Origin: Sphagnum compactum
Taxonomy: Eukaryota
Length of the DNA stretch: 64,000 bases
Assembly: GCA_965153455.1 (NCBI GenBank)
Contig: OZ234493.1
Span: forward strand, 4,588,001 to 4,652,000
Direction of reading: 5' to 3'
This document shows, in pieces, positions 15,066 through 21,000 of the stretch; position 1 is the first letter of the stretch; every line of letters starts with the position of its first letter. The notes beneath the pieces are model-generated. The model had not been told where the DNA came from and did not search any database. It saw only the letters and a list, made by a program, of their open reading frames with translations. Made by a program: the position numbers and the translations under genes.

Positions 15066-18000
15066 ATGGAAGAAGGAGAGCGGCGTGGTGGTGTGGGATC
15101 ATATCCAGCATGGGCTAGGCCCTTGGAAGGTGTATTGCAGCATTTCCAAGTGGATATGAGCAGTGGACTTACAGCTAGTGCAGTGGAGATGCAGCGCACC
15201 ACCTTCGGTTGGAATGAACTTGAGAAGGGGAAGAAGAAACCATTCTGGAAGCTCGTTACTGAGCAGTTTGATGACACATTGGTGCAAATTCTTCTAGCTG
15301 CAGCTGCGGTGTCATTTGTTCTTGCTCTATCTGATGTCAACAAGATGTCAGAAGTCAGAATCGAGGCTTTCACTGAGCCTCTTATCATATCAGCTATCGT
15401 TTTGTTGAATGCAGTGATTGGTGTGTGGCAAGAAAGCAAGGCTGAGAGCACGTTGCAAGCACTCAAAGAGATGCAGTCTGAAGCTGCTAGGGTTTTACGG
15501 GAGGGCATACAAATCATGGACCTTCCTGCACGTGAATTGGTGCCAGGGGATATTGTGGAGCTCAGAGCAGGTGACAAAGTAGCAGCAGATATGCGAGTGG
15601 CAGCTTTGAAGTCAGGGACTGTTCGCTTGCAACAGGCATCACTCACAGGGGAGAGTGAACCAGTACTGAAGCAGATTCAGGAAGGGTCTGATGAAGACAT
15701 TGAATTGCAAGGAAAAGAGTGTATGGTGTTTGCAGGCACTACTGTCACAAATGGCACATGTGTGTGTGTTGTTACAGAGACAGGAATGGCTACAGAGATA
15801 GGGAAGATTCAAGCACAGATTCAGGATGCTGCAAAAGAAGACTATGACACGCCACTGACTCAGAAGCTGGACGAGTTTGCAAATTTGCTCACAAAGGTGG
15901 TGGGTACAATCTGTGTTCTTGTGTGGCTTGTAAACTACAAGTACTTCATATCATGGGATGTAGAAGATGGTTTTCCAGCAAACTTCCAGTTCAATTTTGA
16001 GCAAGCAACATACTACTTCAAGGTAACTTTTCTTTGTTGATGTTTGATTGTGTTGTCTTCTTCTGCCCTATTTGAGACTGATAGGAAGTTCCACTTCTTA
16101 GTAGCATGGTGTGGGATGATGAAGGTGGCAGTGGCACTCGCAGTTGCAGCAATTCCAGAAGGTTTGCCAGCTGTTATCACCACATGTCTTGCCCTTGGCA
16201 CACGCCGTATGGCTGAAGAAAATGCCATTGTCCGCAAGCTTCCATCAGTTGAGACTCTGGGTTGCACCAGTGTCATCTGCTCTGATAAGACAGGCACATT
16301 GACTACCAATCAGCAGTCTGTGGTGAGACTGGTGGGTGTGCAAGCACCAGAAGAATTACGCACTTTCGTAGTGTCAGGCACTTCATATGACCCTAGAGAT
16401 GGAGAAGTTGTAGGTCTGCCTGATGTGCTTGACATGAACCTGCAGTCCATTGCACAAGTTTGTGCCCTTTGCAATGATGCAGGGATCCAGTACAAATCTG
16501 GTGGCTTCTCTGCTGTTGGAATGCCAACTGAAGCAGCAATGAAGGTGTGCTGCCCCTACCTGTATCACCATTTTCATGTGGACTTTGCCTAAGCATTTGC
16601 AAATTTGTCCATACACAACTGAGTGAATTTGCAGTGAAATGTTTATCCTGATGTCACTCTCTGCTGTTGTTATGTCGTTCATAAGAAGCATGAGACCTGT
16701 GTTTGTCATGTTTGTCATGGTGATTGGAATCTGAGGAATCTAAAGGATATCATGGGATTCTGCAGTTGAAAACTGTTGTGTCCTCTTGTGTTGTCATGTC
16801 CAAAGTTTGACAGGTTATATTCTCATTTTTGTCATTGCCATTGCCGATCTGGTTATCTTTCGCAAATCACCAATCTTCATGCTCTTCTGTATGTAAAATG
16901 GTAGGAAATATGGTGATAAAGAGGCACAAATCTGTTATTATTTTTATTCTGTATGGTGTCTATGTTTGGTAGGTTCTGGTTGAGAAATTGAGAGTGCCAG
17001 ACACAAAAGTACAAGAAGAAATAGATGCAAGGCGGTCAGTGGATCTTGAGAAAGCTGCTCTAGGCAAGTGGACAATCTCCAGAACTTTTATTCAAGCTAG
17101 CATGGAATGGGAATGAGTTCTAGGCTGTGAAGTTTCTTTAATATATGTTGTATGATCCCTCACATGCATTGCAAGGTCCTTAGCCTAGCAAGGAGCAGAA
17201 TGTACATTTTGTTCTTTGGTTACTTCAGGAGTCTTTGTCATAAGTCTCAAATAAAGAATACACAAAGATTAAGCTGGCATTCTGCACAGGACATATGATT
17301 GTGGTATACTTTTTGCCCATGTACTCTGAGTAGCTTGTGATGCTGTGTCTTTGGCCAACTGCAGGGGCATGTCAATATTGGGGCCAGAGAAGCAAGTGTC
17401 TGTTCACACTGGAGTTTGATCGTGTGAGAAAGTCAATGAGTGTTATTGTGAAAGAAGTTGATGGGCAGAGAAGCAACAAGCTCCTGGTGAAGGTGCATTC
17501 TTAACTCTGCTATGTCTGCAAACTTTCAAAGCTTCTCCCTATTCTTTCCACCATGAAGAAATGATTGTATCCCAAGCCATATTGCCAACAGTGAAAAGAG
17601 GGGCAGACTTCTGTGCCTCATAGAAAGTCCATGTGTCTCTTGACTGCTAGCCAACACCATGAGTGAGCCTTCCTGTTGCTTCTGGAAATGCCACAGAAAC
17701 TCAGGACACAGATTGTGTAAAATGTTTTGCTCAGAATTTTGTCTGATTATTATATGCAATGCCCACCATTGGGAGCTTTGAAGTTGGTGGATAGTCATGG
17801 GCACTGCTATTTGTCATGAAGGTGATGGTCTGAAACTTCGTGAGCAACTCTTGTAAGGTTATGACTGCACTCATTGTTACTTACTTTCAAACTGTTGTCC
17901 TGTTGTGCTTCATAGTTTGTCCTTGGTTCGTAGGTTTGTGGATGATCTTTTTGTTCCAGATTTTCCAGATTTTGAGAACTTCTTGTACCTTAACCAAGAC

Positions 18001-21000
18001 TCTTTTGGTAGCGGCATATACCCAAAAACCTCTTGCGAGTTGAATTGTACATCTAAAGGCTTCTCTTGTAATTTCTTGGATCTAACTGTGAGCCAGAGTC
18101 CTCAAGGTTTATCCTGTGACATTTTTGACAAACGCTCTCAACCAGAGTATGCAGGTATTGAAATGATTAGAATGCCACACGTTCATTCCAATATCTCAAT
18201 GACTGCGAAGCTCGGGGTTATCAATAGTCAATTTTACAGGTTCTTGAGACTTTGTAGTTGTAAGAAGTTTTTTGTCTTCCAGATGGTCAGTCTTATTGTC
18301 TTTCTGAAGGCAAAAGGCTACCCTTTTAAAGTTCTTCTAAAGAGAACTAGAGGGTTGGTTCTTAAAGAAAAATTCCTCTTTGGAATTTCAGCTTTTGGCA
18401 TTTTCAGAACGATTTTGCTTCGGGTCATGTAAGTGGGGAGCTTTCTGTAAGCCCACTTGTTCTTTGTCTTTCCCTGTCCTTTCCCTTTCTGTCTTTCTTT
18501 GTTTCTTTGTCTGGTCTTTGTTGTGATGTCTGTTGCTAGCCAGTAGTATGGCTGAGTCTTCCCGTTGCTTCCGGAATTGCAGCAGAAACTCAGTTCGCAG
18601 GATGGTGCTTGTCACCGGCCTTTACCCACTGTAGGGAGCTGATGAAGTCAGTGGGGAAGTTGTGATAGTTAAGTCACTATCATACATACTACTGTTGATG
18701 GTACCTGAACAGGTGTGAGACTGGCACTTTTGTTCATACCGGTGTGTGTTTTTTGTTTTGTTTCTTGTCTTCCCTTGTTTGGTTCTTTCTGTGGCTTCCT
18801 GAGGAAGTGTTAACCTTGCTGTTTCTTCTTCATCGTGAGAACGGAGATTTCTCTATTCTCATGAAAGATATTACTTTCAAACTGTTGTTTAAGAGAGTTC
18901 AAATGTGCTCAGCAGTGTCTATAGGCAATGGTTGGTGAGGATGATGGTTTAGAGGTTGGGGACATTATTGAGTTCGAGGTTTAGGTCCTTTTACAAATGG
19001 TAGTGGATACAAGGTTGAAACAGAGTGTCACAATGCTGAGCAACAGGGTTGGCTTCTGGCAGGGTGCAGCTGAGTGCGTGCTGGAGAGGTGTAGCAGTGT
19101 ACAACTAAGAGATGGTAGTGTGGTACCACTTAATGCCAGCTTTAGGGAGAAAATCATGGCCAGTGTGGAGAAGCTGGCGTGTCAAGGCCTTCGTGTACTG
19201 GCTTGTGCATTCAAGACTGATCTAGGCACACTGTCCAACTACACAGGACCCAAGCACCCAGCACACCAGTCACTTGTGGCTTCCGAGAACTACTCTGCTA
19301 TAGAGAGTGAATTGACATTTGTAGGCCTGGCAGGCCTTCAGGTATAATCATTTCATCCAGTATCATGGCATAAGCTGGTTCTTCTGTACACCCCAACAAA
19401 GCCAAAAGACAGATTTCATGAGACTAAATCATACCCTTTTTTTTGTTTAGAAAAGCTAGGTGGTAGAGAGGTCTTGTGACTTCATCCCCCTTGTGTTTTT
19501 TTAGAAGTGATAGGAGCTACAGAGGTCTCTTTGATTCAAAGAATTGGACACTATTGATTCATTTATACAGGTCTGTTGTAGAAGTTCCATAGAGGTGTTT
19601 CACACTTGACTTTATTCCTGTGTATGCAGGACCCTCCAAGGAAAGAAGTGAAACCAGCTATTGATGACTGCAAGCAGGCAGGTATCAGAGTGGTGGTCAT
19701 CACTGGTGATAACAAGAGCACAGCTGAAGCAATCTGTCGGGAAATCGGACTCTTCACCCAAAATGAGGACTTAAGCGGGCGATCATTTATAGGAAGAGAT
19801 TTCATGAAACTCTCCCAAGGTGATAGGTGTGCCCTACTTCTTGGACAACCAGGCTCAGGAAAGGGCTTTGTATTCTCACGTGCAGAACCCATTCACAAGC
19901 AGGAAATAGTGCGGGTGCTGAAAAGTGGTGGCGAAGTGGTAGCAATGACCGGTGATGGTGTGAATGATGCACCAGCTCTGAAGCTGGCAGACATTGGAAT
20001 TGCCATGGGGATAACAGGCACTGAGGTGACTCCATCTTCTTGTTCTGTAGTTTTCTGCTGCCAAGGTTTTGTCTATTTGATTGCTTGTTTCTCATTCTTT
20101 TTCCAGCACAGGAAGTCACAGAGATGCATGACTGTTCCCTCCTAGATCAAGAAGTCTATGATATGTCTGGCCAGTTTTGGAAGCTGAAGCAGTTTCATTT
20201 GAAACATGGCCCCCTCCACCCAGGGTGACCTCTTGCTCTGCACTGTGTAGGTGGCCAAGGAGGCAAGTGATATGGTACTGGCAGATGATGATTTTGCAAC
20301 AATTGTGACAGCTGTAAGGGAGGGTAGGTCTATATATGATAATATGAAGGCATTCATACGCTACCTTATATCTTCCAACATTGGGGAAGTGGTGTGTATC
20401 TTTTTGACAGCCCTTCTTGGCTTCCCTCAAGGGTTGATTCCTGTACAGCTGCTGTGGGTGAACTTGGTCACTGATGGGGCTCCTGCAACAGCTCTTGGGT
20501 TCAATCCCCCAGAGGCAGGTATAATGAATCGACCTCCAAGGCCTCCCTCTGAGGGCATTGTCAGTGGTTGGACTTTCTTCCGTTTTATGGCTATTGGAAC
20601 ATATGTGGGGCTTGCAACAGTGGGCATCTTTGCTCTATGGTATCTCAATAATGAATCATTTCTTGGTATCGATTTATCAGCTGATGGACATACAGCTGTA
20701 ACATTCAACCAGTTGTCACACTGGGGAGAGTGTCCTCTATGGCCAGAGTTTCATGCAAGTCCATATACAGCAGGCAACAACTTGTACACATTTGCAGACC
20801 CTTGTGATTATTTCAGTGCTGGGAAAGTGAAGGCTTCCACATTGGCCATGACCACATTAGTAGCTGTGGAGATGTTCAATGCTTTGAATGCTCTTTCAGA
20901 GAACAATAGTTTGCTGACAACCCCACCTTGGGTGAATCGCTCATTGCTTCTGGCAATTACAGTGTCAATGGGGTTGCACTTTGCAATATTGTATACGCCA

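Follow-up and report, generated by a model that had tools for sequence, protein, structure and literature searches.

A covarying RNA domain, probably selected as sense-strand structure, in the 3' untranslated region of a putative Penelope-like element from Sphagnum compactum

A stretch of 64,000 nucleotides of Sphagnum compactum DNA (the window; assembly GCA_965153455.1, contig OZ234493.1, positions 4,588,001 to 4,652,000 of the forward strand) carries two nested, truncated copies of a retroelement which the architecture of its protein relatives places among the Penelope-like elements (PLEs). The 3' untranslated region (UTR) of the younger copy contains a domain of about 195 nt that is very probably a selected secondary structure of the sense-strand RNA. 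Its helices P1, C, D, and E have been kept by compensatory substitution while the subfamilies of the element diverged to 50-70% identity, and its loops, together with stems A and B, have been kept at the sequence level. As an explanation of the whole, we favor a PLE 3' UTR domain acting in cis as a template-recognition structure for target-primed reverse transcription, and we consider the chances of this being right about even.

The original prediction had described two homologous, diverged copies on the plus strand, and the strings it quoted all lie where it placed them. Positions 18534-18593 and 17645-17704 match at 80% over 60 nt (blastn, E 2e-9), and the old copy (17645-17790) is recovered by a profile built from young copies only (nhmmer, E 4.1e-13). 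Further copies were collected from Joint Genome Institute (JGI) metagenome contigs: a relative is encoded at 396 of 597 pattern matches, from which the 80 best loci (72-96% identity) were retained. Domain profiles, one young-only and one built from the 14-sequence alignment described below, gave 116 hits in the flanks of these loci, all but one (115) on the same strand as the primary copy. With identical sequences removed, there are 95 distinct domain copies, some of them one locus from different samples: 63 are of the young type (at least 76% identical to the copy in the window) and 32 are diverged (40-71%), 31 of the latter on the plus strand. Three subfamilies can be told apart by eye, namely the young type (Y), the type of the old copy in the window (O), and a third type (D). 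No remnant of a reverse transcriptase (RT) is detectable upstream of the diverged domain copies, homology ahead of the domain extends no further than about 190 nt, and scans of genome and viral contigs for more distant relatives confirmed none. Two alignments carry most of the analysis: A3, with 48 distinct young-type copies, and A5, with 14 sequences (six Y, six O, and two D) aligned by MAFFT without regard to structure.

The structure was predicted from the young copy in the window alone (minimum free energy, MFE, -69.4 kcal/mol) and then counted on other sequences. On A5, 80.2% of cells pair across the whole structure, compared with 34-50% when partners are slid, and none of 500 shuffles reaches the observed value. 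For P1, C, D, and E together (26 pairs), 86.0% of cells are paired (28-51% in slid controls), both-side changes are found at 13 pairs in 50 cells (5-7 pairs and 6-27 cells in slid controls), and the covariation score is 0.423 (0.05-0.18 in slid controls). The 32 diverged copies, aligned by a profile hidden Markov model only, were scored against a pseudo-partner control consisting of other columns that hold the reference base of the partner; summed over the same four helices, 118 of 148 double changes stay paired, compared with 35-52% (Table 1). RNAalifold on A5 gives -8.98 kcal/mol for the plus strand, against -0.69 +/- 1.01 kcal/mol for 150 class-preserving column shuffles (z -8.2, reached by 0/150), whereas 17 of 150 shuffles reach the value of the minus strand (z -0.97). 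G.U combinations occupy 518 cells and A.C combinations 155.

The changes can be followed helix by helix. In P1, three pairs swap between UA/GC/UA and CG/UA/CG between Y and the other two types (5-6 of the 14 sequences each), and a fourth is switched at locus L035. Stem C occurs as GAUAG/CUAUC versus GGCAG/CUGCC and GGUAG/CUACC. Hairpin D reads UGUU/AACA in the Y and D types and AGGU/ACUU in the O-type, two of its pairs changing on both sides, and is paired in 90 of 99 cells of the diverged copies, while hairpin E reads GGUGU/GCACU in the young type, UGUGA/UCACA in the O-type, and UGUCA/UGACA in one copy. The covarying multi-hairpin RNA that had been predicted therefore stands as a conserved sense-strand structure, but of the helices that covary only C had been named. 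Even there, the covariation comes from other copies: the TCATG/CATGA pairing proposed for the old copy is not homologous to stem C, the old copy having a deletion at that point, and its CATGA aligns to the 3' strand of P1. The conserved series TGATGG..CTGAA..GTGAG is present as described and falls to the loop of hairpin D and the stems of D and E. Two further helices were tried and rejected. An extension of hairpin E in the young MFE fold, UGAACA/UGUUCA, is paired in only 40 of 109 diverged cells, and hairpin D takes its place; P0 (UGCUA/UGGUA) is uninformative, with 24 of 30 cells paired compared with 73% at a slide of -3.

The original prediction had also described a stem A, claimed compensation for stem B, and proposed an outer closure of the domain. 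Double changes in stem A stay paired less often than the controls in both its outer and its inner part (Table 1); pairing is retained in 60-87% of cells of the diverged copies, covariation does not exceed the control, and some diverged copies (such as L018 and L035) form a hairpin here from another inner sequence. We regard stem A as plausible, though unproven. Covariation in stem B is equivocal: its CCACCA/UGGUGG version is confined to the old copy in the window, three of four diverged copies with CCCACCA keeping CAG, GAG, or CAU opposite; at L044 a C-G pair has become U-A via U.G, and U.G is seen in three further copies. Pairing of the variable arm H2 in diverged copies (57%) is close to the control, and the O-type has a longer AU-rich segment here. 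The closure CACCGG/CCGGUG lies in a young-specific segment and is absent from the other subfamilies, and its U-A and A-U double changes are accounted for by the frequency of independent CpG decay: in the 48 young copies, one pair is UA in 6, with about 5.5 expected from the marginals. The placement of the domain between pyrimidine-rich linkers was borne out, both in the sequence and in A3.

Two features of the loops are recorded here in their own right. An 8-nt palindrome, UUCCGGAA (18569-76), occupies the apical loop of stem A, and GCUAGC (18535-18540) is found at the 5' edge of the domain. Allowing for CpG decay, Y and O retain both motifs and the third type retains neither; they are possible kissing or dimerisation sites. 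In addition, UUCCC in the internal loop of stem A (18559-18563) is complementary to GGGAG in the loop of stem B (18634-18638), both being nearly invariant in all subfamilies. RNAalifold favors this pairing over stem A, with which it would form a pseudoknot; it was set aside because both sides are almost invariant and offer no variation to test.

Table 1. Features of the element copies and their host gene in the window, with the double changes that stay paired in 32 diverged copies (pseudo-partner control in brackets)
Feature	Position	Strand	Basis	Double changes staying paired
Host gene upstream exons, P-type (SERCA-like) cation ATPase	15039..16592	+	open frames, Pfam	
Older copy, second subfamily (O-type), 5'-truncated; structured domain 17645-17875 and start of tail	17645..17898	+	nhmmer, blastn, alignments A4, A5, A6	
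Target-site duplication, left copy, 18 nt, within O-type tail	17881..17898	+	exact repeat	
Young copy, 5'-truncated retroelement	17899..18870	+	RT C-terminus, 438-nt 3' UTR, target-site duplication	
End of RT-like open reading frame, last 177 codons and stop codon	17899..18432	+	13 homologous proteins, 80 loci, profile search	
Young copy 3' UTR, 438 nt, sharp 3' end ...AUGAAAGAUA	18433..18870	+	52 full-length copies	
Pyrimidine-rich linker, length varies	18456..18533	+	indel-rich columns of A3	
Structured RNA domain, ~195 nt: P1-closed junction with arms A, H2, B, C, then hairpins D, E	18534..18728	+	young-copy MFE, RNAalifold, pair counts, column shuffle	
P1, long-range closing helix	18543-18550/18685-18692	+	RNAalifold, pair counts	21/32 (40%)
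Stem A, three-part hairpin	18552-57/18588-93, 18559-61/18585-87, 18564-68/18579-83	+	sequence-conserved	outer 3/12 (43%); inner 3/10 (39%)
H2, variable arm AGG.UGGUG/CACCG.CCU	18599..18621	+	alignments, MFE	
Stem B, CCCACUG/CAGUGGG; loop with conserved GGGAG and CUGAUGA-containing mini-hairpin (18638-40/18646-48)	18625..18655	+	sequence-conserved	6/13, 46% (48%)
Stem C	18661-69/18676-84	+	pair types AU/GC/GU and UA/CG/UG	39/51 (35%)
Hairpin D	18693-96/18708-11	+	loop with conserved GAUGGUC	27/32 (45%)
Hairpin E	18712-16/18724-28	+	pair-type counts	31/33 (52%)
GU- and pyrimidine-rich linker, length varies	18729..18790	+	indel-rich columns of A3	
Conserved terminal segment with box GGAGAUUUCUCU at 18843-54	18791..18870	+	copy alignments	
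Target-site duplication, right copy, 18 nt	18871..18888	+	exact repeat of 17881-17898	
Probable remainder of the older copy's tail; end approximate	18889..18930	+	weak alignment to O-type tails ending ...CAUAGAU; moderate support	

The limits of the element follow from comparison of its copies. All 52 full-length UTR copies (77-94% identical) stop at the equivalent of 18870, with a shift of a base or two in two cases, and run into unrelated flanks thereafter; this common end identifies the 18-nt repeat on either side of the young copy as a target-site duplication (TSD) and delimits the insertion. O-type tails at other loci read ...GGUUAUGACUGCACUCAUUGUCAUGUUACCUUCAAAUUGUUGUUGUGGAGAUUUCUCUGCAAUUUCAUAGAU and contain the duplicated motif, and in the window the first part of such a tail precedes the young insertion, with a weaker match after it. 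Since the duplicated 18 nt are part of an O-type tail, the young copy landed inside the tail of the older one. The box GGAGAUUUCUCU is found near the 3' end of both Y and O tails (O: L013, L035, L048), the remaining tail sequence being different, and is a candidate motif for terminal recognition or for initiation. Domain copies of mixed subfamilies also follow one another head-to-tail in one orientation, in the window (17645-18930) and at L076 (4659-5100), L003 (5971-6127), L048 (5981-6125), and L018 (1797-5979); in the window and at L076, L003, and L048 the new copy begins within the tail of the older one or a few bases past it. This looks like a preference for insertion into resident 3' tails, from which mixed-subfamily 'partial tandems' arise.

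Young-type copies show graded 5' ends and reach only about 2.2 kb, with no endonuclease (EN) part; an intact open reading frame (ORF) was found at none of the 11 loci inspected, and no near-identical pseudo-long terminal repeat (pLTR) of the same subfamily was seen. The 2.2-kb form may be an EN-less or internally shortened form that was amplified. The longest young-type copies (L006, L014, L018, L022, L035) share a 5' boundary about 1250 nt upstream of the match to the RT C-terminus, and a 583-aa relative, P0012, begins with a methionine near that boundary.

The frame 17899-18429 encodes 177 residues that include RT motif C (RRFVDD). The fragment has 13 homologues at 57-98% identity, the closest named one being a hypothetical protein of the fern Ceratopteris (57%), and the family profile search returned 7863 proteins at E<=0.001. 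A GIY-YIG domain lies near the N-terminus of 7 of the 19 long relatives scanned (E 3e-7 to 3.4e-4; five above the Pfam cut-off), and in all seven the family match is C-terminal, whereas the window copy and the 80 loci hold the RT part only. Such a layout, with GIY-YIG at the N-terminus and RT at the C-terminus, is that of the Naiad and Chlamys PLEs (PMC8557442). The Penelope-like label of the original prediction is thereby supported, and the element appears to be of the N-terminal-endonuclease (Naiad/Chlamys-like) kind, an assignment that is based on architecture in relatives and not proven for the truncated copy itself. Other searches added little: Pfam gave no match to the 177-residue fragment, RVT_1 appeared as a sub-threshold match in one of the 19 long relatives, searching Pfam (including RVT_1) and PDB sequences for the RT protein or for its profile gave nothing useful, and the neighbors in the ESM Atlas, HTH_animal and RVT_1 clusters, are leads only. 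In P0009, a predicted protein of 367 aa, a DEAD-box helicase domain is joined to a segment that is 98% identical to the RT C-terminus; P0009 is probably a gene-model chimera arising where an element copy lies within a helicase gene or next to one. On the minus strand of L031, a diverged RT remnant was rejected as a further case, being degenerate and having no domain downstream.

The element is represented in RNA. In one raw stranded polyA RNA-seq data set, about 99% of first mates lie on the minus strand, both over the element and over the flank of the plus-strand host gene, and this shared read direction makes the element RNA sense. The RT part is covered to a depth of 80-130, the domain to 200-700, and the terminal segment to about 350, compared with 6-7 for the intron beyond 18915; the domain and the tail are thus the best-covered parts, and across 17600-19000 the element is 10-100 times deeper than the flanking intron. 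Such depth for a dispersed, mostly dead family implies a promoter of its own or, among copies inside genes, a strong bias towards the sense orientation. Reads over 18870 run on into many different flanks, where no poly(A) run was reported. O-type copies are transcribed as well, as is shown by loose ends at 18624 and 18655. Three metatranscriptome contig sets cover the stretch, contigs being blind to strand and level, and about half of the sampled UTR words are present in RNA runs labelled moss or plant metagenome.

The sense UTR transcript would fold into the P1-closed junction with its four arms (A, H2, B, C), with hairpins D and E directly behind. This domain, perhaps together with the terminal box, would be a cis-acting signal that allows the RT to pick out its own RNA and set it in position for target-primed reverse transcription. 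An RT-recognition structure was one of the two possibilities named in the original prediction, and it is plausible. By analogy with other retroelements, recognition of RT and template is the role that we tentatively assign to the domain, with a confidence somewhat short of even. It is favored by the association of the RT C-terminus with a sharp common 3' end, a TSD, an expressed sense UTR, and a covarying 3' UTR structure. Domain copies with no RT remnant upstream, as possible shared 3' modules, count in the same direction; they may be discrete short elements or products of deep truncation, the copies being too few to tell these apart. Non-autonomous Chlamys elements are described as resembling autonomous ones at their 3' ends (PMC8557442).

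Several observations weigh against this reading or against parts of it. All copies are decayed, and the heterogeneous flanks entered by reads past the 3' end mean that much of the RNA may be read-through and not element-driven. For Poseidon of Anolis, the only PLE studied in vitro, the RNA segment required is contained in the first 172 nt of the ORF, and copying by the RT is initiated internally (PMC11167929); as that determinant is ORF-proximal and not in the 3' UTR, the analogy with R2 and the long interspersed nuclear elements (LINEs) is not secure. With regard to the structure, stems A and B together (24 pairs) are paired in 83.8% of cells of A5, with both-side changes at 7 pairs in 8 cells compared with 4-7 pairs and 5-9 cells for slid partners, and their conservation, the strongest at the sequence level in the domain, could act at the DNA or protein-binding level. 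Folding of single sequences is ordinary (z -1.25 for the young and +0.77 for the old plus strand), and the minus strand of the young domain (18525-18750) scores better than the sense strand (z -2.65), the opposite of the alignment tests. With about three lineages, the independent compensatory events are few, some 10-13 by eye.

The small number of lineages and the weak single-sequence z-scores would also suit an explanation without any selected structure, in which the relatedness of three lineages, the choices made in aligning, and CpG decay together give rise to the apparent covariation. In the controls, chance preserves pairing in 35-52% of doubly changed cells, and CACCGG/CCGGUG is an actual case of CpG decay mimicking compensation. 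We nevertheless consider this explanation very unlikely, as the slid-partner controls preserve the phylogeny yet score far lower, none of the 150 column shuffles reaches the alifold energy while the minus strand is ordinary, and the prediction was made from one sequence and tested on others aligned structure-blind. A function at the DNA level, with blocks A and B acting as promoter or transcription start site (TSS) elements for a downstream tandem copy, like the pLTR of Penelope and Chlamys-3_cRei, and with RNA pairing secondary, would leave the compensatory changes in P1, C, D, and E unexplained, as well as the strand asymmetry of the signal; moreover, no pile-up of read starts occurs within the domain or after it. 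Such a function is in keeping with the sequence conservation of A and B without covariation, with the head-to-tail clustering (115 of 116 hits on the plus strand), and with the TSS and internal promoter described in the pLTR (PMC8557442), but in our judgment it is distinctly unlikely. An unlikely alternative is that the RNA acts in cis in another way, through stability, 3'-end processing, nuclear export, translation of the upstream ORF, evasion of silencing, or dimerisation via the palindromic loops. Any of these could explain why a sense-strand 3' UTR structure is conserved, and dimerisation would draw on the UUCCGGAA palindrome and GCUAGC, conserved in two of the three subfamilies, and on the typically tandem arrangement of PLE copies (PMC8557442; PMC11167929). 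Nothing in the data is specific to any such step, however: the ends past 18870 are heterogeneous, and the palindrome is missing in the third subfamily.

The domain could also be a ribozyme, self-cleaving or ligating, from a class not yet described, perhaps a hammerhead derivative doing the job of hammerheads in a hammerhead-less clade, and the original prediction had proposed a possible ribozyme, noting that PLE termini usually carry hammerheads. That expectation does not hold for this clade, as Naiad and most Chlamys elements are reported to be without canonical hammerhead ribozymes (HHRs; PMC8557442). The same paper uses 'HHR_core' and 'HHR_half_core' for core strings present without a fitting fold and marks eight Naiad families as 'HHR_half_core'; in its supplement, as far as available, the words moss, Physcomitrella, and Sphagnum have 0 occurrences, and no family from a moss is named. 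In our element, CUGAUGA (18639-45) and GAAAC (18585-89) are among the most conserved loop strings, 50 nt apart with GAAA upstream, an 'HHR_half_core'-like condition which, together with the multi-helix junction with invariant loops and the lack of an Rfam family for the domain, is what speaks for catalysis. Yet CUGAUGA lies mostly in the mini-hairpin of stem B, its C and U being paired in the stem and GAUGA forming the loop, and GAAA is taken up by stem A (G18585-A18587 in the middle part, A18588 in the outer part). Threading of the hammerhead in all three topologies through 18433-18870 and 17600-17900 on both strands (in the former, two CUGANGA by two GAAA sites; every cleavage position; helix II at least 2, III at least 1, and I at least 3 bp) gave no candidate. 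The claim that the domain lies outside the described Rfam families was upheld: Rfam 15 gave no hit at gathering cut-offs in the whole 64-kb window, and at E<=1 no ribozyme or other relevant model on six related loci (56,650 bases). On 17000-19500 at E<=10, only small nucleolar RNA, microRNA, and long non-coding RNA models appeared, at 13.7-20.9 bits against cut-offs of 50-90, the sole overlap being a minus-strand long non-coding RNA model in the linker (E 6.7). Models of hepatitis delta virus-like, twister, pistol, hatchet, and other self-cleaving RNAs in Rfam 15 did not match, and the raw stranded RNA-seq, at a depth of 200-700, shows no sites where molecules begin or end, although polyA selection is poorly suited to cleavage ends. 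We consider a ribozyme highly improbable. Equally faint is the prospect of the boldest version, a new catalytic RNA class in which a descendant of or replacement for the hammerhead, with relic CUGAUGA and GAAAC in a four-arm junction, processes tandem PLE transcripts, or, more mildly, of a telomerase-RNA-like scaffold for a telomerase-related RT.

The element copies sit in an intron of the host gene, between the ATPase frames 15039-16592 and those from 18985 onward, where further open frames of the ATPase follow on the plus strand; the splice sites are approximate. The frame 15039-16040 matches the Pfam families E1-E2_ATPase (E 4.8e-37) and Cation_ATPase_N (E 2e-20). Upstream of the first listed ATPase exon, at about 14300-14450, dinucleotide microsatellites appear in six-frame translation as RERERE/SLSLSL and HTHTHT/CVCVCV runs.

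Among target-primed elements, the 3' UTR of R2 and the 3' stem-loops of 'stringent' LINEs and of their short interspersed nuclear element (SINE) partners are bound by the RT of the element. Our element resembles these in its multi-helix 3' UTR domain, its precise 3' end, and its 5'-truncated copies with TSDs, as well as in helices preserved by compensatory change despite sequence drift and apparently in 3' modules that also occur without an ORF. It differs in belonging to the PLE class, with an RT of the GIY-YIG lineage, and in a domain that ends 142 nt before the 3' end. Hammerhead ribozymes in the pLTRs of PLEs were reportedly described by Cervera and de la Pena in 2014; our domain likewise lies at a non-coding end of a PLE and contains the strings CUGAUGA and GAAAC, but it has neither a three-way-junction threading nor an Rfam hammerhead match.

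Within the PLEs, the comparison is closest with Poseidon and with the Naiad/Chlamys kind. The RT of Poseidon depends on a particular stretch of its own RNA and starts copying at defined sites; the determinant, however, lies at the pLTR-ORF junction and ours in the 3' UTR, and Poseidon has a C-terminal EN and hammerheads (PMC11167929). With Naiad and Chlamys (PMC8557442), our element shares the C-terminal RT, the N-terminal GIY-YIG of its long relatives, 5' truncation, clustering in the same orientation, the lack of a canonical hammerhead, and a host of the green lineage, but its copies are only about 2.2 kb long and have no EN part. An EN-less type included with these, 'PLE-X', is described in Chara and Selaginella, with BlastP hits in mosses, and its families have canonical HHRs, which are missing in the copies studied here (PMC8557442). 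In the literature searched, no such 3' UTR structure of a PLE is described, and the available portions of PMC8557442 and PMC11167929 mention only hammerheads and the ORF-proximal determinant.

How PLEs choose and prime their RNA is barely understood, hammerheads having so far been the sole RNA motif tied to them. A hammerhead-less PLE with a covarying domain, a precise 3' end, and diverged variants offers a concrete RNA on which RT binding, template definition, and cleavage can be studied. PLE RTs are regarded as the closest relatives of telomerase RT (PMC8557442), and a structured RNA partner of a PLE RT, if real, would bear on how telomerase acquired its RNA. A structured 3' UTR of a target-primed retroelement is a known kind of feature, of which none is known in the PLE class and for which Rfam holds no family here; the domain is a candidate for a new Rfam family.

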